Positions 19,097 to 55,564 of a stretch of DNA of 64,000 bases are shown in pieces. Made by a program: the position numbers and the translations under genes. This stretch comes from Podarcis erhardii. Taxonomy: Eukaryota. The notes beneath the pieces were generated by a model. That model did no database searches. It was not told the DNA's origin and saw nothing but the letters and a program-made list of their open reading frames with translations. Each line of letters begins with the position of its first letter. Position 1 is the first letter of the stretch. The DNA lies in the NCBI GenBank assembly GCA_964252035.1, contig OZ176209.1; one strand, written 5' to 3'.

Positions 19097-20270
19097 TATA
19101 AATATAGGCAGAGGTCTTTGCTGCTTTCTTCGTTGCATGGGCTCACAGAAACCCTGCAAGAGCCAAGTAAAAATGCTTTCCACTAGCCATTCTGATGTTT
19201 TCCAGCAAATGCATGTTGTCTGTTTTTCCAGATCAGGTTATCAAACATTTCTGTTTGTTTTCTCTTGATAGCTATTTAATCAACCTGATCTACCCCACCA
19301 GTCCAAGGGAGAGAAAGTAAGAGGGAAAAAGCAGTGCCTTCAGCATATTCCAGAAACCCATTACTATACACTTTTTCACCACCGTCCATCACATCATCAG
19401 TGAAATATTTTTTTAAAGAAATATTAATAAATTTAGCTTCAGAGCAGCCCTATGAAATTAATTATTTTCATATATTCTTTTCTAAAAAGAAAAAAGTATA
19501 ACTCTTAAGGCACAGTAACTGGTGCAGAATCACACAAAGGATCTTAAAGTCAGAGGTAAGAAACTGCATGTTATGAAACCGTAATGATGGTTTACTCTCA
19601 GGGCCACCCGTCTGCTGATGAATGACAGTTCTGCTCTATAGGAGCTCCACTGGCAGAACCCATCTCTGCTTGCATATATTAATTTCAGAAAAGGCACCGA
19701 AGGAAATGCAAAGAAACGTCTGAGTTCTAACGAATGCAAAATTCCTAATATGAACTGAGCCAGTACTCCCTCTTCCATACATATTTGCAGTGGGTTAAGA
19801 AATAATTAATGCACAGAATATCTTGTTGGAAATTTGTTTTGCTTTTTGCATGCGTCTTACACGGATACTTGACGGCAAACAGCTACACCATCTCAAGCTC
19901 TATGGCTTTTTGTGAGATAGGAAAGGCCTTGAAACAAGACTCCCATCCAGCAAGATATAACTATAGCTTGCATTATCGTCAAGTCAATGAAATGTTTAAA
20001 GAAAACAAAAGTAAAAATGGATTTGTAAATAGCAATTCGAGATTAGAATTGGAATTGCTAAATAATAAATTTAAAATACTATCCAAAATGTATAGATTAC
20101 TATTGGAATGACATTTAAAAGATGAAGTTAAAATAGGTTATGATACATTGGGCTACAGACATAGGCCACAATATACCAATAGATGATTGGGGGAGATTAT
20201 GGAAAGAGGGAATAAACTTTACTGCCTGCAGTGCGCTAAAAGAAAATACAATGAAAATGATGTATAGATG

Positions 20271-20675
20271 TGTAATGGGATAAGGGGTTGTTTGTGCGTA
20301 AGCGCCGAACCGCTCCAAGCTGAGTAGTTGGCTAAAACTTTCCCTGACCGGGCAGCCCTTACTTCATGGCTGTCTTAATCACTGGCAGAATCCGTCAGTG
20401 GGCGTTTCCTGAATTTCTTCCAACATAAAAGCTCCTTGACAGAGAGTCTCCGCCTAGATTCCCTGCGCGACAGCTTTCTGCACAGAGTGGGCGTCCCAAG
20501 GGGAGGTCCTGAGCTCTCTCCACTGATCTCGCTGGAAGCGTCCCTGAGCCTTCCGTCTGACGCCCCCTCCTCCTCTCCTTCCTCAGTGGAAGCTCTCCCT
20601 CTTTCCCTGCTGGTTCCCTCCCCAGCGTACGGGAGCCTTGCCACCCCCCTGGGCTCCGATGGCAGTTCCCTGACA
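20271..20675 (-). mobile_element. Solo LTR 'A' (405 bp), probably Ty3/Gypsy
   Basis: TG...CA termini; 5-bp TSD agatg at 20266-20270 and 20676-20680. Orientation inferred from similarity to LTR B; superfamily is inference. Confidence 0.88.
20375..20674 (-). CDS. Putative LTR-encoded ORF fragment (99 aa, open from LTR nt 2, no start codon inside the LTR)
   Basis: VRELPSEPRG...EEGEEEGASD...TPTLCRKLSRRESRRRLSVKELLCWKKFRKRPLTDSASD*; shares a 25-aa motif with the LTR B frame. Confidence 0.5.
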   Translation of the reverse strand, partial: VRELPSEPRGVARLPYAGEGTSRERGRASTEEGEEEGASDGRLRDASSEISGESSGPPLGTPTLCRKLSRRESRRRLSVKELLCWKKFRKRPLTDSASD

Positions 20676-21398
20676 AGATGGTATATAACACCAGTAAAAC
20701 TAGCCAAAATGTATAAAACAAATAATAAATGTTGGAAATGTGAAGAAAAAGAAGGCACGTTATACCATATGTGGTGGGAATGTAAGAAAGTAAAAGACTT
20801 CTGGGAAATGATTTATAATGAAATTAAAAAAAATGTTGAAATATACATTTCCCCCCCAAAAACCAGAAACTCTTATACTTGGCATGGTAGGTTCAGAAAT
20901 CCATAACAATGATAAAAAAAAAATGTTTTTATATGTGACCACTGCAGCAAGAATATTATTAGCCCAACGTTGGAAACAAGAGGAAAAATCAACAAAAGAA
21001 GAGTGGCAAACGAAACTGATGGACTATGCCGAGCTGGCGAGACTAACAGGGAAAATCCGAAACCAGCAGGACCAAATTTTCCTATAGGACTGGAAGAAAT
21101 TTATGTTGTATTTGAAAGACAATTGTAATTATTTCACATTGCTTGTAGGGTTACAAGAAGTTTTGTAAGGAGGACTTTATAAATCATTGTGGAAAGGATT
21201 AAAAATAGATGATGTAAGAGTGGATTTAAAGCAATAAGTATAGTAATAAAATGCAAAAATAGAGAGGAATTTAGAAAACCATTAGAAGGGGGTTGAGGGA
21301 AGTCTTAGGCTGTGATAGCCAAATATTTGTTATAATGTTATTAAGTTGTTATGTTTGGAAATTTGTGCAAAAAACCAATAAAAATTATAGATTATAGG

Positions 21399-21473
21399 TA
21401 GATATAGATATAGATATAGATATAGATATAGATATAGATATAGATATAGATATAGATATAGATATAGATATAG
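21399..21473. repeat. (GATATA)n microsatellite at the L1 tail
   Basis: Direct reading, about 12 units. Confidence 0.95.
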
Positions 21474-23880
21474 AGACTGTAGCTTCTTTTGACTGCTCCT
21501 CCTCCAATAAAACATGTGGCAAAAACATGTGTTCTAAAACATGTGGCAAAAAATATAATCTCTCTTGAATATGTAGTTGACTCTAATTCATGACCCTTTG
21601 GGGGATGGGGAATCTGTGAGCATCTGGATGTTGTTAGTTTCCAGCACTATATTATTACTTTTAAAACTTTGGACATAGTTGTTGAGTCTGTTATGTATGA
21701 AAAAAATAAAAAAAAGACCCACTGACCCTCACTGAGAAAATGATGAAGCCAGATCCCATTGGCCGTACATTGGCCATTTTTCTCACTGCACAAAGTCTGA
21801 TTTCACATTATGAGTTCAGGAAGAAGAGGCAGCAGACATAGGTGTTTATGTGGGGAATAGCACAGAAACAGCATTAGCCGTAGCACTAGGAAATGTGGCA
21901 CCACTTAGGACTGAATATAATTAAGCATTCCACGTGCCCCCAGGAGAAGTTGTGACATAACTGAAAATCAAAAGTGGTGAATATTTAGTGCAAAATTAGA
22001 GCAATAATAAGGCATAATATGAAACAGTGGCCAACAACAGTGATAAAAGCCTATTCCAGCAAAATGCAGCAGCACCAAAACCTTCTTCAGGAACATTACA
22101 ACAGCAGGTACAGTCAACAAAATATCTCCCGTCAGTCTATCCAAAAGCCTGGGAGATATGGCTAAATATAACATCGATAGTATTTCAGAACTCCCCATTA
22201 CACAACTACATAGATGCATCTCTTTTTGTTCACATTTGCCTGTTATACATATTTTTGCACATTTCTCCTACTAACTCACACTTTTGACTATGGACTCCAA
22301 ACAAAAGCTTCCTCCCCTCCCCCAAATGTGGCTACAATTTCCTTTAAGCTTTCCTAGTGCTCAAATCCAGCAACTTTTTGAAGTTTCATCTCTCCTTTTT
22401 TTAGTTTCATGTTCCTTTGGCACAAAGTCCCTCTTTTCTTGCTTGAGCAATATGGGTTCCATTTGGAATGCACATAGATCAGTTACCTGGGCCTTGCTAA
22501 CAACGTAAAACAGTTCCCAGCAAGCAAAACTCAGCATTTATCTTGCTTTATTCTGATGCTGGATGATCTGAATAACACAAATGGTGCATTGAAAATTGCT
22601 CAGAGTAGAATTTATCTGCCAGCGCTGTATCTGGGCTGTTGTCTAGTAACCCACTGCCTTTGGCAGCACAGCGTCTTGCATTGGTGATTTTCTTGTCAGG
22701 TGGAACTGTCTGAGATTGATTATAAGGCTGGTCAGGTTCCTCCCTTTCCCCAACCTTGAAAATGCTTGTCTGCCTGTGGAAGCCCCATTCCGTGTGTTGG
22801 ACAGCTCTGGATTGACGGGCTTGGCAGAAGGTGTAATTTGTAACTCCGAGGGAGGCTGACAGGGATAACTAAGCAGTCTGAGGTTTCAACTTTTGGAATG
22901 ATGTTAAAGGAAAATTTGTTCTATCTTTTCAACTGGTATAACTATGTGTTTGGGACATGCAGAACCAGGTGCAAGCGCCAGCTAGCTGAATGGGAAGAAG
23001 CAGAAATAGCTAAAGCAAGAACATTGATCTAAACGACTAGGTGGCAAGCCAGTGAAGAGGTAAATGGTGATGTTGGTGAGAAAAAATAGTAGAAATTATT
23101 ACTGTTAACCAATGATGTAGCCCATTCAGGCCTGTTTTCATGATCATTTACCTCTAGAGTATGGGACTGTCAATGTGTGGTCCTCCAGATGCTTTTGCTG
23201 GTCTAGAACTTCCATCATTCCTGAACATTAGCCATGCTGTCTGGAGATGATTGGCTTTGTAGTGGAAGAGCCACCACAGAACAAATGTAGGGATAATATA
23301 ATACAGGAAGTGGTCTCACTGCTTGGAATTAGCCAAGTCAATGACTCTCATGTTGTTATTTGTAGAATGTATTTATCTACACAGTCAAAAGATTCACAGG
23401 CCACCACTGCAGGAACTTTCAAGGCAGCTACAGAAAAAAGATAAAATACACTGATAAAATACAATAGTAACATGGATGGGTGTCCCAAAGACATCTATTG
23501 GAACTTCCTCTCCAATGGTGGAAAGAGAGGTCTGTGCCCAGAGAGGGAAATCTGGTGTCAGACGCCTCCTCTGAGGCTGCTTAGGTGTTTCAGGTGCATT
23601 CTAGGTTTGTACTGGGAGAGGCTGTAGATCCATAGTCTCTCCCAGCATGCCCTCAAATCCAAAAAGAAGAACTTCTGATTCATGTCTAGAATATACAAAC
23701 GAAGGGTGTTGAACTATTAGCCCCAGCAAGCATGGATCATGGTAGTTCAACAACACCTGAAAGACCGTTGGAAGGCCTAGGGTAGGGGCAGGAATGTGGG
23801 GGCTTTTAGGTGGTATTGGACCACAGCTCCCACCAGCTAGTGTGCCCAATGATATGATCTGAGCTGTAAACCAATGAGTA

Positions 23881-36387: not shown

Positions 36388-36725
36388 GGGTGGCGCTGTG
36401 GGTTAAACCACAGAGCCTAGGACTTGCTGATCAGAAGGTCAGCAGTTTGAATCCCCACGACGGGGTGAGCTCCCGTTGCTTGGTCCCAGCTCCTGCCAAC
36501 CTAGCAGTTTGAAAGCACGTCAAAGTGCAAGTAGATAAATAGGTACCGCTCCAGCGGGAAGGTAAACAGTGTTTCCGTGCGCTGCTCTGGTTTGCCAGAA
36601 GCGGCTTAGTCATGCTGGCAACATGACCCAGAAGCTGTACGCCGGCTCCCTCGGCCAATAAAGCGAGATGAGCACTGCAACCCCAGAGTCGGCCACGACT
36701 GGACCTAATGGTTAGGGGTCCCTTT
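36388..36725 (+). mobile_element. Sauria SINE, near full length
   Basis: Matches the other copies; TSD tac(a/-)atatttgtgt-like with one mismatch (tacatatttgtgt / tacacatttgtgt). Confidence 0.92.
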
Positions 36726-39700
36726 ACACATTTGTGTATGCATTTTTCATGCAAAGTACACACTTCGTGTCCATTTTTAAAAAACTTTGTAATCAGATTG
36801 ATAGCCGTGTTCCAGTCTGCTTATACATCCAGGGCGAGCAAATTAAGTTGCTTCATTTTAAAATGCAGATCCCATTGAATTTATCCTCCCCCTATTCACA
36901 TCACATCATATTACATTTAAGCATAAAAATGCATCAATAAATTGTCACAGATGTTCTATACAAGGGCATCCCTGACAACGCACAGCTGGGAAGGGGGAGT
37001 GGCACTTAAACTGAAGTCTAAATGCTTGCATGTCCCAGGCATTGCAAGTCATAGCCAAACTGGCTACAAGCCACATGGCCTGTCAAATGGAGGAGAGTCA
37101 TGCAGAGCAGCTCAGTGTGTCACTGGAAACTGCATATGCCCTCACCCTTCTAACATGTGGGCAGGTTTTTGGCTGACACAATGTTGTCTGATCACAGCTT
37201 GCATTCTAGCTGTTAAGTCAAGAGGCTGCATCATATGTAACTGCGGGCAATAGAACAAAGAGGGTCTGCTTTTGCAGAAGCAATCTGCATTTGCTTTTTA
37301 TCACCCTCTTTCTCATGCATTGGTTGTTTGGAAACTACAGAGGGCATCAGCACAAGAGGTTCCGATTAATCTTGGAGCAGTTTAATTCTTGAGAGAGGCG
37401 GTTTACCCTTTGTTGTGCGCTTGTGTCCTCCAGTGAAATTATTAAGAGTAATGTGCAGCTCAAGGACAGCACACCCTCATCCACTCCCTTCATGTTAGTG
37501 AGATGGGCAAAAGAGATTAGGAGGAAATGGAACAAGCCTAATTGCTGGATGGTTCTGGCTAGCGCTGTGCCAAAAATTTATCTCACATTTCCCCCCCAGC
37601 CATTCTTCATCAGTGTAAGAAATTACAATGGAAAATTATCAAATGGGAGAGAAAATGTCAGTGAAAATCTTATGGTTGGGGTGCAGGTTTTTGCTTTTGT
37701 TTTACTGTACTTACCTTATGTTGGAGGAAGCTGAAGAGCCTTTTCCTGCCCTCCACACCTGATGTCATGATGTAGAAAGAGATATTGCATGACTTGCATG
37801 AATCAGATGACCCTATCCAGACCCCGATGGCAAAACTCTGCTGAATATATGCTTTTGGTTTTATTTACTTATTAAGAGATTTTTTTATAATGCCTCCCAC
37901 AACAGTCTTCAGGCACTATTGAAAACTAAAAATACAATACATCAATATAAACACAACCCAGTAAAATAAATGCAGCTGCAAATGGGTAAGAATAAAATGG
38001 GTACAGCAATAAGTTTTAAAGAGGCACAGAAATGTGAACTGTGAAAGTGCCTGCCTCGGTTTGGTGGGAAGGTAATGCCACAACGGAAAAGAAATAGCAG
38101 TATTTATGTATTTATTTAATATATTTATATACCACCTTTCAAAAGGAAAACTCTTCCCAATGAGGTTTGCAACTATATCAACATACAAAACAGTAAAATA
38201 TATTTTAACACCTATTTATCATTACTTGTTAATTAATGAGCTTCTTAGTTATTCACCCACCCCAACATTATCAATACTATCAAGCCCAGCCCTGCTCAAA
38301 AAAGGCAGCATAACACAACCATCCAAACCAAACCACAAGTATCAGAACCACAACTAGGCCACAATTAGTTTGTGATGTGCACTTTCATAGCCAGCAAACT
38401 TGCTTCATTAGCTACATGAAGTGGACTGCAGAAGCTCCCCACCCCCTTCTGCGGCTCTTCCCTATGGGATTAGAGACATTCCAATTTATGTCAAGCTGAA
38501 AAATATTATCTCGGTGCCCTCTTGCTGTCTCTTGGCTATATTCCTAACTGCAAATGCATTTCTAGCTCTTCTGCTTTCACACTGCAAATTAATACATCGC
38601 TTTGCTATGTTGCTGAGCCTGCAGCCAGATGGACGGAAATAACCACACTTAGAGAGGCGGCAATTACTCTTCTTTCTCCGAGGTCCTTGTACTAGGGCTG
38701 TTGGCTTGGAGAGGCTGTTGCCCAAGCAGTAAGGGCTATTCACCTTTGCCTTTTCTGCTGGATATACAGCAGATATATAGAAAAAACACTCCAAAAATGA
38801 CAAACTAGCTGCATTCCAGATGTGCAGAAGTTGTTAGCTAAGGAGGTGGGGCCAAGGCAGGTCCAGATGTGAATAGAATTCTGTAGCTTCAGGAAGAGGA
38901 CACACAGTCAAGCAAGAAGTACTGGCACACAGGTCCATTGTGACGGTGAAGTCTATTTTTAGGCTGCCGTCTCTCTCGCCTCCTTTCTGATAATGAGCAC
39001 ATTGTTTTGACTGATGTACAGGTTAGCCGAGATGGAGCCACGGAAGGCTTTTTGCTAAGGGTGGTGGTGGTGAAACATATCTTTGTCCTTTGCAATAATA
39101 GCAAAGAAGAAACAATGTGCAGAACACATTCTATGGACACAATCTAGCTCACATTGAGCATTTTTATTGGCCCATTGATTTCAGGGAGCTTAAGCAAACT
39201 TTTAAAAGCAGGACACCACTGGCACAGTGCCCTTATTGTCCTATAAAAGAGTAATTTGGGGGCATGCATTGTATTACAGACAAAGCAATCTGCCTTACCT
39301 TATTCCAAATATCAGCTATCAAGTGCAGATATAGGCATAGCTGGGTTAAAAGTGGCCTCAGGGTGAGGGTTCATGTGAAACAAAGAAAGGTGCCTTATCT
39401 GAGAAGGCAACTGGTCCATCTAGCTCAGTATTGACTATATTAGCCTCTGCCAACCTGGCGTTCATCAGGTGCTGACTGGGGCTGATGTGAGTTGTAGCCC
39501 AAAACAATTGAGGGTGGGACACCAGGCTAGTGAAGGCTGATTTACACTGCCTGACAGACATGGGTCTTTTCTAGCTATACCTGGAAGTGCCAGGGATTAG
39601 ATCTGGGTCATTCCTCAGATGCTCTCCCTCTGACCTATGGTCCTTCCCCAAAGGGAAGCAGTGGGTACAAGAGGGGTCTGCCATGCACCCCCTCCTGCCC

Positions 39701-43657: not shown

Positions 43658-45650
43658 AGCTGAATGAAGAAAAGCTCAAGCCAATAAGGGAGCTGGTAGG
43701 AAAAGGTGATATTTGTACTGTGATACAGCAAGGAGGAATGTTTAATACCACAATCTGGCAAGACCTTTCAGCGCATGTCCCCAAGATATACTTAATCCAC
43801 CTGCTTTTGTCTTTCATCTCTTCTCCAAGTTACAAGGAGCAACTTGACAGATAAAATCATGTAGAGAATGAGAGTGAACAGCTGTTGCTTGTTCCTATTT
43901 TTTGGGCTGGAAGGGAAGTTATAAAGGTCTGTTCACCTTCAAGACCTATTATATTTGCACCTGCTATGGATGAAATCTAATATACTGTTCAGAAAGTCCT
44001 ACAGAGCAGACTTCGCTACCTCCCCAAGTCCCTAAGTAATTTCTCCTATTGCCCACTTATGCATATGATCATAAAATTATTGACTTGAGATCTTTTACAC
44101 TTTGCTCAGTCAGGTAAGGCAGAGCTCTACAACATTAAGTATTCAGCTTCGGTATGTAGCCACTTGAAGATTGCTCAGATATTTGAAGGGTAGAACAATC
44201 TGCAGGCTGAGCAATGGTATAGTTTGGTGACAGTCTTGACTCTGGACCCTCTACTTAAATGGTGATATGTATTGCTTCACTTCAACATCTGAAGTATAGT
44301 TTTGATGCATATCAGACAAATATCATTAACTACATAACCCATTTCACTGTCTTGACTTATTTATTTTAAGAGCTTTTCCTTTTATGAATTAGCTCCCCTT
44401 TTGGTGTGTGTGTGTAAACATGTACTGGTGTAAATGTCTATTCCTTTAAATTGTCATCACTTGCCCTTGCTCTCAATTGCCCTCATTTGTCTCCAGTGAT
44501 GTAAGCATGTAGCAAAATCCAATTGTTACTGACAGCAAGGATGGCGAAAGCCAACTAATTGCATCAAAAATCATGTGATGACTGGCCAGAGTCATCACCT
44601 GTGCATCCGGAACAAACTGCAAGCTTGATCGACCGACACTGAACTTATGCTTTCAGTAATATGATGGCTCTCATATCAGAAGATCTGTTCACTGCCATTC
44701 ACCTACTTGCAGCCTTCAAAAATCAGACCTAAACTGCTACACCAGGGTCAGATGTCAAGAAACAAAAGCTGGATGATTTCATCCTCAGTGGTGCTATCAG
44801 GACTTTGAGGCAGACGTCCAAAGCCTCACTCAGCAGAATGAACAGGAGGGTTCCCAACTGCATATGCCAGTCTGGTAAGGAGGCCGCAATACTTTGCTTT
44901 CATTTTCCATTTGGGATGATGTGAATAATACAGCAACCTCCTTTTGACGGGAGTAAGGATTAATTAATAGTAGCAATGTGCTTTGAAGATAAGATCTAAG
45001 TGTTATTATTAAAAAAAAATTACCTGCAATTTGCACTGTAGCTTAGAAGACAGGAGTAATTTACCATGTAATGATGTGATATGTACCATGGGCCAAATTA
45101 AGCCCTTGAATGCATGTGCACTGCCCCCATGGACATTAATGAAAGTTGCTATTGAAATAGAGGGGGGTGGGCAGGTGGCATGCTTATGTAAGCATCCTTC
45201 TATTGCCTGGTAAATTGTGTAGAATTAACAAGCAGTTAAGAGATGAGTGTCTTGCAATCTGTTTGATACACAAGCCCTTGCACATAAAATACATACTCCA
45301 AACAATGAAGTGGATTTATAGAGTAATTCTTTTGGAAGCAATTTAAAATCCAAATGAGAACATCAAAGTTATGAATACCTTTGGAAGAGAGGTTCCTTGT
45401 AATTCTACAGCATCTGTAATTCTTCTACATTCTCCATCCTTCCGTAGCCAGATGACAACTCGACAGTGTAGTCTAAAGCTGAAGGGGGAATAATATTTCA
45501 AATCCATAATTTGAATATCAATGGTAACAATGTGAGTTCTGGTGTAAATCCAATCATTTTATTTGTCTATGTACTTATGGGCTGTCTTTTAGCAGTATTC
45601 AACCCACTTTTGCTCAAACTTAATGGAAATCAATGGACCTCACTTAGTAA

Positions 45651-46006
45651 AGTAAAGGTAATGGGACCCCTGACCATTAGGTCCAGTCGTGGCCGACTCT
45701 GGGGTTGCGGCGCTCATCTCGCTTTATTGGCCGAGGGAGCCAGCGTACAGCTTCCGGGTCATGTGGCCAGCATAACTAAGCCGCTTCTGGCGAACCAGAG
45801 CAGTGCACAGAAACGCCGTTTACCTTCTCGCTGGAGCGGTACCTATTTATCTACTTGCACTTTGATGTGCTTTCGAACTGCTAGGTGGGCAGGAGCAGGG
45901 ACCGAGCAACGGGAGCTCACCCAGTCGCGGGGATTCAAACCGCCGACCTTCTGAACGGCAAGTCCTAGGCTCTGTGGCTTAACCCACAGCGCCACCCGCA
46001 TCCCTT
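45651..46006 (-). mobile_element. Sauria SINE, full length
   Basis: Perfect 15-bp TSD gacctcacttagtaa at 45636-45650 and 46007-46021. Confidence 0.94.
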
Positions 46007-50631: not shown

Positions 50632-50986
50632 CAGGCCTCACAGGGACGATTGCTGTCACTGCTGCTGCGGCCCAGGGGGATCCGGAGGGGTGCAGACTTC
50701 TTTTTAAAATGTTTTAAAATTTTCCTTTTCCTTTTTATTTCTTTATTATTATTATTATTATTGTCATTATTATTATTGTATATGCAGGGATGGGGTGGGG
50801 GTGGAATGGATGTTTAGTTGGGAATTTGTTTGATTTTGATGGATTTGTAATTTTTACAGTTTTTTATTTGTATTTTTTTTTGTTTTTTGGGGTTTCTTTT
50901 TTGTTTTGTTTTCATTGTTTTAAGGCCTTATTTTGTTCTTAAGGGGAGGGGTCAGGGCTGCCGGGGAGTGGGTCCCAGCCAACAAA

Positions 50987-53900
50987 ATGGCTGCGGCATG
51001 TTCCACAGGGGGGGATGCGTTGGGACAACCGATCTCAGTGATCTCGGGTAGGAGGAGGAGTTACGCTAAGACCAGACCATGTCATTACAGAGGAGGCAGG
51101 TTTAGTCATTGTCTGAGGACTATCCCTGCCTCCGGGTCTGGTCCTGACCAGATGGATACTAGAATCAGCAAGGGATACCCACATGACCTGAAGGTGCTGC
51201 TGTGCAATGCCAGGTCAATGATTCATAAGACCACTGCCATCCATGACCTGATCATGGATGGAGGATTTGACCAGGCATGTGTAACAGAGACTTGGTTGAA
51301 TGAAGCAGATGGGCCTGTTCTTGCCGCTGCTTGTCCACCAGGTTTCTCTTACGCACAGCAACCCAGGCCTTGTGGGCGGGGAGGGGGGGTTGCAGTGATT
51401 TTTAGGAAGTCATTAGTTTGCACCAGGCGTCCTATTGGGAAGACCCAGTTCTCTGAGTGCATGTTCTGGAAGTTGGGCAATAGGGGCAGTACAGGATTCC
51501 TATTGGTGTACCGACCTCCCCGCTGCACCAAGGATTCCCTGCCCGAGCTGCTTCAGGTCGTGGCGGATGTTCTCCTGGAGACGCCTAGTTTGGTTGTCCT
51601 AGGGGATTTTAATATCCATGCCGACACGACCTTACAAGGGGCCGCTCGGGACTTCGTGGAAAGCATGGCCTCTATGGGGCTGTCCCTGAATAAGTTTGGC
51701 CCAACCCATAGCCGCGGACATGCCTTGGACCTGGTGTTTACCTCTACGGATGTTGGTGACCTGACACTAAAAGTGAAACAAAAGAAGTGCCATGGTCAGA
51801 TCACTTCCTGGTGCAACTGGACTTCTCCGCGACCCTTCCCCTCTGCAGGGAGGTGGGACCGATTCGGATGGTCCGCCCCCACCACTTAATGGATCCAAAT
51901 GGTTTCCAGAGAGTGGTAGGGGATGCTTTATCCCATGTTGATGACCTTTCAGCTGATTCCCTGGTGGCCCGCTGGAATGTGGAGTTAACCAGGGCTATTG
52001 ACTGTTTGGCTCCGAAGCGCCCTCTCCGATCGCATGGAGCCCGGAGAGCCCCGTGGTTTTCCACGGATCTGAGGGCAATGAAACAATCGTTGAGACGGCT
52101 AGAGCGCCGGTGGCGGATAACTCATTCTGAAGCTGATCAGACACAGGTTAGAGCTCAATGTCGAGCCTACCAAGTGGCGGTAGCGACGGCGAAGAAGACT
52201 TTCTTCACCGCCTCTATTGCATCTGCAGAAAACAGCAGCAGGAGACTTTTTCAGGTGGTCCGCAATTTAGCGGAACCACCTGTGACATCGGGGCCCAGTA
52301 AGGGCCACATGATCTCCTGCAATGATTTTGCAAAGTTTTTTGCAGATAAAGTCGCTCAGATTCGGGAAGAGGTAGACGCCACCGTGGGAGCAGGGCCAGG
52401 GCGGGAGAGTGCTAGAGTCCTGTCTAGTCAAATTGCATGGGATCAATTCCAATCTGTTACCTCCGAGGATGTGGACAGGCTGCTTGGACGAGTGAAACCA
52501 ACCACCTGTCTCCTTGATCCTTGCCCATCCTGGCTTATAAAAGCTAGCCGGGTAGGACTGGGCGATGGGCTTCGTGGGGTGGTGAATGCTTCCCTCCATG
52601 AGGGAGCCTTCCCAGACCCGCTGAAAGAGGCGGTTATCAAACCACTTCTTAAAAAACCATCTTTAGATGCGGCCACGATGGCCAACTATCGCCCAGTCTC
52701 AAATCTTCCATTCTTGGGCAAGGTGATTGAGCGAGTGGTTGCTGAACAACTCCAGGCACGCCTGGAAGAAGCGGACCATTTGGATCCCTTCCAGTCGGGA
52801 TTCAGGCCTCATCATGGGACTGAAACTGCCTTGGTCGCACTGGTTGATGATCTCCGGCGGGCTAGGGACAAAGGTGAGAGCTGTTTCCTAGTTCTGCTGG
52901 ATCTCTCAGCGGCGTTTGATACCATCAACCATATCATCCTTCTGGACCGTCTTGAGGGGCTGGGAGCTGGGGGCACTGTCATTCAGTGGTTCCGCTCCTT
53001 CCTCCTGGGCCGTGTTCAGAAAGTGGTAGTGGGGGATGAGTGTTCAGACCCCTGGGCTCTCACTTGTGGGGTGCCTCAGGGTTCTGTCCTCTCCCCCATG
53101 CTTTTCAACATCTACATGCAGCCGCTGGGAGAGATCATCAGGGGGTTTGGGCTGGGTGTTCATCAGTATGCGGATGATACCCAGCTCTACCTCTCTTTCA
53201 AATCAGAACCAGTGAAGGCGGTGACGGTCCTGTGTGAGTGTCTGGAGGCGGTTGGAGGATGGATGGCGGCTAACAGATTGAGATTGAATCCTGACAAGAC
53301 AGAAGTACTGTTTCTGGGGGACAGGAGGCGGGCAGGTGTGGAGGACTCCCTGGTCCTGAATGGGGTACCTGTGCCCCTGAAGGACCAGGTGCGCAGCCTG
53401 GGAGTCATTTTGGACTCACAGCTGTCCATGGAGGCACAGGTTAAATCCGTGTCCAGGGCAGCTGTGTATCAGCTCCATCTGGTACGCAGGCTGAGACCCT
53501 ATCTGCCTGTGGACTGCCTCGCCAGAGTGGTGCATGCTCTGGTTATCTCCCGCTTGGACTACTGCAATGCACTCTATGTGGGGCTACCTTTGAAGGTGAC
53601 CCGGAAACTACAACTAATCCAGAACGCGGCAGCCAGACTGGTGACAGGGAGCGGCTGCCGAGACCATATAACACCGGTCTTGAAAGACCTACATTGGCTC
53701 CCAGTACGTTTCCGAGCACAATTCAAAGTGTTGGTGCTGACCTTTAAAGCCCTAAACGGCCTCGGTCCAGTATACCTGAAGGAGCGTCTCCACCCCCATC
53801 GTTCTACCCGGACACTGAGGTCCAGCACCGAGGGCCTTCTGGCGGTTCCCTCACTGCGAGAAGCCAAGTTACAGGGAACCAGGCAGAGGGCCTTCTCGGT

Positions 53901-54015
53901 AGTGGCGCCCTCCCTGTGGAATGCCCTCCCACCAGATGTCAAAGAGAACAACAACTACCAGACTTTTAGAAGACATCTGAAGGCAGCCCTGTTTAGGAAT
54001 GCTTTTAATGTTTGA
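50987..54015 (+). pseudogene. L2 ORF2: APE endonuclease + reverse transcriptase, one frameshift at ~51767-51770
   Basis: EN motifs CNARS, VTETWL, LGDFNIH, SDH; RT motifs YRPVSNL, QSGFRP, LDLSAAFD, GVPQGSVLSP, YADD. ATG at 50987 in aaaATGg context. ORFs 50933-51889 and 51787-54015 join by a -1 shift (..DLTL / KSETKEVPWSDH..). Confidence 0.93.
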
Positions 54016-54025
54016 TGTATCATAG

Positions 54026-54848
54026 TGTCAGAGCTGCCCGAGGTCCCAGCTCACAAAGGACCAACGCCAGTTCTTGTTATATACAAAAGTCTTTATTGAA
54101 GTTCAGTTTCCATTTCAAAGCCGCGGCGCGCAGCTCTACGTCTTGAACTCTAGACCGCTGAAGCCCGTCTGAATCTCCTCCCCCCAGACACCAGTTCAAG
54201 ACTCTAGCCTTGCTCCACCTCTTCCTCTGCTCTTTCCTCCTCTGGGTCCGCTTGTCCGCTGGGGTCTTGCCCTTTCTGGACTCTTCTGACGCTGAGTCCC
54301 CTGATTCTTCCCCCTGCCTCCGTCGGGCTTTAGGACCTGGTTCCCAATCCGGGCTTTCTGCTGTCCCGCGCGCCTGTACATTTGAACTTGGCGCGCGCGC
54401 CCAGCCGGCAACCTTTCTCCTGACCGTTACACTGCTCCTGTCACTGCTTCCCCCTTCGGGAGTGCTAGCTGGACTTGACTTCCCCTCCGTTCCCTCACTC
54501 TGCGATAGAGGCGTGGCCAGCCCTGACTCATCCTCTCTCCCTACTGGAGGAGACGCTGGCCCTGACACATGGGACTCTTCCCCCCCACTCCGCTCTGGTG
54601 GGGGAACTGGTCCTGATCTCCCGCTGCTGCTTTGGGAGTCCCCGCTGGCCCCTTGCTTCTGGTGTGTCCCCCCTGGGACCCCCCTTGCCCTGGCCATCGG
54701 CGCCCCCCTCTGGGAATCTTCTGAATCACTGGAGAAGCTCATGGAATCTCTCGGGCCACTGTCATACTCCCCTACGCTGCCCTCAGATTCCTCCCCTTCG
54801 CTCTCCGTTTCCTCTCTCCCCTGTGTCTCTGCTCCTGAGCCCCTGACA
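54026..54848 (-). mobile_element. Solo LTR 'B' (823 bp), probably Ty3/Gypsy
   Basis: tgtcag...ctgaca termini; 5-bp TSD catag at 54021-54025 and 54849-54853; minus-strand AATAAA at 54092-54097 near the 3' end. Excision restores the L2 3' UTR seen at 7530-7620. Confidence 0.92.
54077..54847 (-). CDS. Putative LTR-encoded ORF (256 codons open from LTR nt 2; first ATG at 54742 gives 221 aa)
   Basis: Acidic S/E/G-rich region, then basic TPADKRTQRRKEQRKRWSKARVLNWC. I translated 54847-54743 by hand and found no stop. Confidence 0.5.
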   Translation of the reverse strand, partial: VRGSGAETQGREETESEGEESEGSVGEYDSGPRDSMSFSSDSEDSQRGAPMARARGVPGGTHQKQGASGDSQSSSGRSGPVPPPERSGGEESHVSGPASPPVGREDESGLATPLSQSEGTEGKSSPASTPEGGSSDRSSVTVRRKVAGWARAPSSNVQARGTAESPDWEPGPKARRRQGEESGDSASEESRKGKTPADKRTQRRKEQRKRWSKARVLNWCLGGGDSDGLQRSRVQDVELRAAALKWKLNFNKDFCI

Positions 54849-55564
54849 CATAGTATTTTAATATTCTTTTGGAAGCTGCCCAGAGTGGCTGGGGAGGCCC
54901 AGCCAGATGGGCGGGGTATAAATAATAAATTATTATTATTATTATTAATGCAAAATCAGAATAAATCATCAGCAGAGGATGACAACAGTTTTAAAAAAAT
55001 GCATTTCTAAATAGCTGGGGAGCATTACTAGAGATAATTCTAAAATCACTAGAACTGAGGGTTGTCCAATGAAGCTGAATGGTGGGAGATTCAGAACTAG
55101 GGATGGGGGTACCTGTCCATTTTGGTTTCTCTCCATTTCTCATTTTTACCAATGTTAAGTTCAGTTCTCCACTTGTCCACATTAGATTGTGATTTATTTA
55201 TTTTTTTAAAAAAGTTACGATGAAAATCCATTAGTATTTCAATGCAAATTTATGCACTTTTTAAAAATGCAATTTTACATAATATCATGAATTATTGCAT
55301 GTTATTTAACCCAGTATTTGCACTTTTGTATACAAGACATGGCTAGGAAACTGCACTGCAATATTAGGAGAAGTGCAATTTTTGAAAGACGGCTGTGTTT
55401 TGGTCCATGTATTGTTTCAGATGGTGCGAATTGAGTGGCCTTGCTTTTCAAAGCAAAATGAATTGGATTTCTCCTCACCCCTATTCAGGACAGGCAAAGA
55501 AAAAGCAGTTCTTCACAAAAAGCATAGTCAAAACTGTGAAATTCGCTACCAATGATACAGTGAT

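Follow-up and report, generated by a model that had tools for sequence, protein, structure and literature searches.

The long open frames in two dissimilar LTRs of the lizard Podarcis erhardii are the in-frame C-terminus of Pol, whose last 99–232 codons overlap the 3′ LTR. The elements form one clade of chromoviruses in which the chromodomain has lost its aromatic cage and FxGF motifs, themselves under selection, have been gained upstream of the LTR. This loss and this gain are what is new here. The frame ends in a basic…LxW motif that is under purifying selection between lineages. We call the two LTRs A and B, and the 64,000-nucleotide stretch of DNA that contains both is referred to as the window. 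A preliminary description of this DNA had read the frames as a small, separate accessory gene carried by LTRs, and we consider that proposal alongside the other explanations below.

The LTRs of one chromovirus clade carry the end of Pol

LTRs A and B are solo LTRs of one Ty3/Gypsy chromovirus clade in this lacertid lizard (Table 1). Each runs from TG to CA and is flanked by an exact 5-bp target duplication; further TGTCAGG sites within the window are not LTRs. A first look at the genome gave 2943 candidates for LTR B and 2504 for LTR A, with 40 scored for each, and the 40 best-scored of the 2943 LTR B candidates were 98–100% identical. Paired LTR copies enclose a Ty3-type gag and a PR-RT-RH-IN-SH3-chromodomain pol, and the order PR-RT-RH-IN behind a Ty3-type gag assigns the elements to Ty3/Gypsy. 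Named protein relatives come from Podarcis and Zootoca.

Table 1. Positions of the parts of LTRs A and B in the window.
Feature	Position	Strand	Description
Solo LTR B	54026..54848	-	823 bp, Ty3/Gypsy chromovirus; TG…CA ends and TSD; paired copies flank gag-pol
Left TSD of LTR B	54849..54853	-	CTATG; from sequence
Right TSD of LTR B	54021..54025	-	CTATG; from sequence
Pol C-terminal tail relic in U3/R of LTR B	54077..54847	-	256 codons in this copy
Basic…LxW motif, clade B	54191..54265	-	purifying selection; ML omega 0.193, 2dlnL 29.7 vs omega = 1
Predicted transcription start (54170) and PBS-pairing self-priming segment, LTR B	54159..54170	-	pairs over 11 nt with the PBS in full-length elements, beginning 20 nt past the Trp codon
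AATAAA, likely polyadenylation signal of LTR B	54092..54097	-	from sequence; present in 8/9 clade-B lineages
Solo LTR A	20271..20675	-	405 bp, TSD CATCT; sister lineage within the clade of LTR B by integrase tree
Pol C-terminal tail relic in LTR A	20375..20674	-	99 codons, no ATG; Pol of element L067 is open into the 3′ LTR
Basic…LLCW motif, clade A	20420..20494	-	ML omega 0.107, 2dlnL 63.2 vs omega = 1
Predicted transcription start (20399) and 11-nt self-priming segment, LTR A	20389..20399	-	pairs with the PBS in full-length A elements

In a quick maximum likelihood tree of 45 of 46 integrases (P0001 was dropped for short coverage), all 12 tail-bearing rows share one branch with SH-aLRT support of 100, so the frames of LTR A and LTR B are homologous by descent. 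A-type and B-type integrases are 56–58% identical, and the tree held no supported sister group for the tail-bearing clade. A genome search with the tail of the distant protein P0005 returned A-like elements only. One decayed relative from Zootoca vivipara (P0017) has an acidic …EEEDLSGF segment ahead of a GGW end encoded by the polypurine tract (PPT), which suggests that a second genus holds a further lineage of this clade.

In full-length copies, Pol crosses the PPT in frame into the 3′ LTR and stops just past the basic…LxW motif. The element L067 has a 948-aa open frame that spans RT, integrase, chromodomain and PPT and stops at the A motif inside the 3′ LTR. Similarly, L035 has a 1541-aa Pol frame ending at a B-type motif, and the Pol frames of L141, L143, L144 and L145 extend for 1376–1558 aa through the PPT to the motif. 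This tail is also found at the end of two Podarcis Pol entries in UniRef, P0001 and P0003. The PPT/LTR junction pattern matched the genome 2094 times, compared with a single match in the control. Across the first 30 junctions fetched, an unselected sample, the LTR frame was open over all 1.5 kb fetched upstream at 16 and the motif was reached in 26.

The chromodomain was in frame with the LTR frame at 3 of 30 B-lineage junction loci, while the other 27 had no in-frame chromodomain and carried small indels, many of them in G-runs. The B lineage itself is the more decayed, and in its sister lineages the frame holds throughout Pol. These indels fit decay or assembly error. A programmed frameshift at the B junction was considered and rejected, as the indels hit different G-runs in each copy; the segment measured 58–71 nt among the 100 junctions listed.

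That the frame is a Pol tail explains its opening at nucleotide 2 without a start codon. The preliminary description had correctly reported this opening in both LTRs. Its length of 256 codons for LTR B is private to the window copy, in which the self-priming segment, just past the motif, is one base shorter than usual; in 25 of 30 family copies the frame runs for 232 codons. It had also called for mapping the start of the frame in full-length elements, where we found a frame continuous with Pol from upstream. Its caution that long frames arise easily on a T-poor strand does not account for the B frame, since shuffled sequences remained open to that point at a frequency of 0.0008 for LTR B (0.019 for LTR A).

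The primer binding site (PBS) of full-length copies pairs with a 10–11-mer in the LTR, and ten variants of this segment were found, each with its own matching PBS. The paired segment begins 19–21 nt (mostly 20) past the Trp codon of the motif in both clades. In self-priming of the Tf1 type, the PBS is described as pairing with the 5′ end of the mRNA (PMC4600332, PMC6317226). By this analogy, transcription would begin some 20 nt beyond the Trp codon, at the positions in Table 1. The frame lies upstream of this predicted start and would thus be missing from transcripts made by the promoter of the LTR itself.

We also note several features of the surrounding sequence. LTR B inserted about 10 bp past the stop codon of a LINE at 50924–54015 (+), which has endonuclease-like and RT-like frames of 321 and 751 aa and whose tail resumes beyond the LTR. 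LTR A splits a fragment at about 20200–21500 (+) that resembles the end of an L1/Tx1-type ORF2, and copies of a short repeat at 36431–36820 (-) and 45472–45954 (+) resemble the Sauria SINE. Elsewhere in the genome, an element of a sister lineage is nested, inverted, within a B element (L035–L036), and other B elements contain LINE insertions. The B-type elements L143–L145 and L152 have GGGAAAC in the gag/pol overlap, like the -1 frameshift site of PEG10; at this point the A-type elements differ in sequence.

Purifying selection on the terminal motif

The A and B motifs share 10 of 25 residues without gaps, eight of them encoded by different codons, and both counts from the preliminary description were confirmed. 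Nucleotide identities at codon positions 1, 2 and 3 were 10, 11 and 5 of 25. Taken alone, this likeness is weak: at least 10 identities in the best 25-residue A/B window were reached in 20 of 200 shuffles, and A/B cross-profile scores of 3–14 bits lie inside the shuffled-control range (up to 14 bits). The motifs stand at an equal distance from the PBS-paired 11-mer in A and B, which fixes the register independently. In this register none of 20000 motif shuffles was as good, and the likeness is therefore significant.

Selection was estimated from nine natural copies per clade, one per sub-lineage. Because an open frame was the basis for choosing them, their openness carries no evidential weight. 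Maximum likelihood omega for the 25-codon motif was far below 1 in both clades (Table 1), which agrees with the amino-acid-level constraint proposed earlier, and the motif recurs in one consistent frame across many lineages. In clade A, synonymous sites of the motif are near saturation (pS 0.66) while the residues hold, and the last seven codons show a pN of 0.046 against a pS of 0.69. The LLCW end is also present in the distant P0005. The linker before the motif is looser, with a pN/pS of about 0.5 and a length that varies in frame.

Other sense frames over the motif had pN/pS values of 0.77–2.1, and only the antisense shadow frame was low. The antisense ORFs at 54162–55010 (+) and 20379–20906 (+) were rejected as real genes. 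They are shadow frames that share third positions with the sense frame, their pN/pS values of 0.33 and 0.47 are above that of the sense frame, stops interrupt them in three A and seven B lineages out of nine each (10 of 18 overall), and they have no conserved Met.

The selection acts in replicating elements rather than in inserted LTRs. Among 30 copies of each family, variants private to one copy had pN/pS of 0.96 (B) and 0.88 (A), compared with 0.23 (B) and 0.41 (A) for variants common to several copies (Fisher p = 0.005 for B, 0.09 for A and 0.001 pooled). Since private variants are neutral and shared ones constrained, solo LTRs do not maintain the motif. The suggestion of a protein spread in solo LTRs thus gives way to neutral decay after insertion.

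In a fold model, the integrase and chromodomain are folded and the tail is predicted to be disordered (pLDDT about 35–50), with a single 4-residue helix in the motif. The modelled tail would be an acidic disordered stretch ending in the basic…LxW motif. This retains the acidic, disordered and basic…LxW parts of the architecture first described, and gives little support to its helix, pLDDT being under about 50 throughout the tail. Searches with the LTR motif gave no Pfam match, nothing better than E 0.067 in PDB and a best Atlas match of 0.77, and thus pointed to neither a partner nor a family. The motif resembles the CENP-C motif and BC boxes only in part, lacking the conserved Pro and the second aromatic residue.

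Chromodomain cage loss and gain of FxGF motifs

The three-residue aromatic cage of the chromodomain is complete in none of seven clade proteins, compared with 105 of 140 relatives, and B-type proteins are without all three cage residues. Pfam Chromo matches A-type Pol with an E value of 1e-9 and P0005 with 3e-7. B-type Pol had no Pfam Chromo match; the region aligns to the chromodomain but is degenerate.

When 1.84 billion representatives were searched with a profile, most of the matches were generic chromovirus integrases. Among the best 150 integrase relatives, 143 had a chromodomain, and the median tail was 16 residues. FxGF occurred in three of these tails and basic…LLxW in two, all from members of the tail-bearing clade; outside the clade, FxGF was found in the tail of 0 of 140 relatives.

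Both clades have a helix, a linker and an FxGF motif directly after the chromodomain (FWEEQFGTTDDEEDFAGF in A and YFDEYLFTPTLSASTFQGF in B). Clade A has a second FxGF copy, and this second copy is the sole one in P0005. These motifs sit upstream of the LTR, outside the coordinates of the LTR frame. The FxGF segments showed pN/pS of 0.18–0.26, compared with 0.34–0.69 for the next 15 codons, in 6–8 copies each (the first pattern missed two A loci).

Published work gives the IBD-binding consensus as S/E-x-F-x-G-F (PMC7337902), and the first motif conforms to it in both clades. The second A motif and that of P0005 fit FxGF, with the preceding S/E not always present. One lineage has LF…STFHGF in common with the DPF3a peptide described in the same source (PMC7337902). 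A TIM is characterized as a helix, an acidic linker of 8–16 residues and FxGF, the last being needed for both LEDGF and HRP2 (PMC9987994). The lizard proteins have this TIM/IBM layout, with (S/E)xFxGF, a short helix and an acidic linker of 8–16 residues in predicted disorder. In 140,510 residues of relatives, the bare (S/E)xFxGF consensus occurred twice and the full layout was absent. By their fit to the LEDGF/HRP2-binding consensus, we regard the FxGF motifs as putative binding motifs.

The host genome has a LEDGF gene, of which exons were found. A search of PDB with the FxGF profile recovered no known TIM. Complex prediction for the lizard LEDGF IBD with the first FxGF motif scored 0.09 with alignments unused, which is no evidence either way. 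In the open-access literature, with Repbase and Dfam outside the scope of the search, we found no description of the tail or of FxGF in a retrotransposon integrase.

Candidate roles of the tail and comparison with known systems

The tail is probably a disordered arm by which the integrase enters the nucleus and docks on host chromatin, with binding predicted from motif likeness. Its translation would require full-length genomic RNA and the gag-pol frameshift, and it would stay on the integrase. The upstream helix–acidic linker–FxGF motifs would bind the TND/IBD of LEDGF or HRP2, which are H3K36me3 readers, and such binding would bias insertion towards H3K36me3 gene bodies. The terminal basic…LxW motif may add nuclear import and a second chromatin or protein contact. 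These contacts would replace the degenerate chromodomain, and solo LTRs would carry the tail passively. A more specific version of this docking arm is possible, and we offer it tentatively: a methyl-lysine-reading chromodomain may have been traded for linear mimics of host proteins, with one or two FxGF motifs plugging into LEDGF/HRP2 just as its cellular partners do and the LTR-coded basic…LxW binding a second chromatin target. In that case, a non-retroviral element would have captured the HIV tethering factor independently, and the plant CR motif would have a counterpart in animals.

Several other readings fit part of the data. The same Pol tail could end in a motif that is only a nuclear localization signal (NLS), or a non-specific nucleic-acid-binding end of the integrase, with no targeting role for FxGF. 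The motif is rich in Arg and Lys and tolerates swaps between them, the tail is predicted to be disordered, C-terminal NLSs are described in retrotransposon integrases (PMC3605345), and insertions occur on most chromosomes, all of which would suit a simple NLS. However, an NLS does not need the near-invariant LxW that clade A holds and P0005 shares, and this reading leaves both the selected FxGF motifs and their coincidence with cage loss unexplained. We consider it unlikely.

It is more doubtful that the tail, made within Pol, is cut off by the element protease and acts in trans as an anti-silencing factor, a transactivator or a sink for LEDGF/HRP2 partners. The long linker between chromodomain and tail is modelled as disordered and would be accessible to a protease, and cellular TIM-bearing proteins are described as transcription regulators (PMC9987994). 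However, we identified no conserved cleavage site, plant integrase targeting domains occupy the corresponding position behind the chromodomain, and frameshift-limited expression would probably yield little protein. For the transactivator, anti-silencing or histone-mimic activities suggested in the preliminary description, we found no evidence.

A stand-alone accessory gene, expressed from solo or 5′ LTRs, is very improbable. An open frame is present in 26 of 30 B copies and in 25–26 of 30 A copies, codons 36 and 51 of LTR B are in-frame ATGs, and a host promoter or splice could occasionally read the frame. Against this, the copies are young and open frames are therefore expected, the frame is continuous with Pol and upstream of the predicted start, LTR A has no in-frame ATG, and private variants are neutral.

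Equally remote is a promoter element at about -45 to -21 that has no protein role and leaves an open frame as a by-product of T-poor sequence: although the Trp codon is fixed 20 nt from the predicted start, and the motif codons overlap the TATA position, where clade B has a TATA-like TTAAA or near variant, with TTA-AA kept in 7 of 9 lineages, so that part of the clade-B constraint may be on DNA, this is refuted as the sole cause by the low omega in both clades, by the residues held in clade A at near-saturated synonymous sites, and by the truly DNA-constrained segment (codons W+7 to W+12), which shows a pN/pS of 0.9–1.1 instead.

The 56 copies of the window's B subfamily lie on most chromosomes, with an excess near the ends, and are not confined to one region. 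In the contigs C1–C13 of the genome (G000), 36 of the 100 listed B-lineage PPT/3′ LTR junctions fall less than 1 Mb from a contig end, at both ends, where 2.1 were expected; for the window's own B subfamily, 6 of 41 are within 1 Mb of an end (1.05 expected). This excess may reflect targeting, retention or subtelomeric duplication. A single 30-Mb contig (C19), which we guess could be the W chromosome, has 14 of the 56 B subfamily copies against 1.1 expected, often nested with other elements.

For the question of how vertebrate Gypsy elements choose their insertion sites, this clade supplies short, selected and testable motifs, and a single genome offers more than 2000 junction-bearing copies to set against the distribution of H3K36me3. 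If the docking arm does bind LEDGF/HRP2, it would represent convergence with lentiviruses by a different structural route. The promoter DNA and the coding sequence for integrase also occupy one shared stretch here, and long frames in young solo LTRs should be read with caution, as they can be Pol tails rather than genes.

Compared with Tf1/sushi-group chromoviruses (the vertebrate V-clade, with Sushi-ichi and Amn-ichi), the lizard clade has in common gag followed by PR-RT-RH-IN-SH3-chromodomain and a 5-bp TSD. The self-priming type of PBS (PMC6317226, PMC4600332) and the TGTYA start of the LTR (PMC3601003), as described in these accounts, are also shared. Those relatives end a median of 16 residues past the chromodomain, mostly with the cage intact, whereas the lizard clade adds 200–400 residues into the LTR and has lost the cage.

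The TIM/IBMs of JPO2, POGZ, IWS1, MLL1 and DPF3a consist of a helix, an acidic or Ser/Thr linker and FxGF in disorder, as in the lizard clade. They are found in cellular proteins, while the lizard motifs, whose binding is predicted, are on a retrotransposon integrase. Tethering of lentiviral integrase by LEDGF involves the same proposed host factor and outcome, a bias to transcribed gene bodies (PMC9987994).

Lentiviral integrase binds LEDGF through its folded core, whereas the lizard integrase would use linear motifs that mimic those of LEDGF's cellular partners.

Plant CRM group A and some beet chromoviruses are described as having a Pol that extends into the 3′ LTR and carries a targeting motif (PMC3059260, PMC3605345); in CRM group A this motif (CR motif/CHDCR) is encoded in the 3′ LTR (PMC3059260). 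The lizard Pol also enters the 3′ LTR, and the parallel is one of layout. Plant CRM elements belong to a different clade and are primed by tRNA-Met, whereas the lizard elements have a self-complementary PBS, an animal host and a retained, degenerate chromodomain. CRM group A is confined to centromeres. B subfamily copies occur along most chromosomes of the lizard, in which centromeres were not located, and are not restricted to one region on each. Together, a Pol that extends into the LTR with a targeting motif was already known from plants, and the gain of FxGF with loss of the cage is new in this clade.
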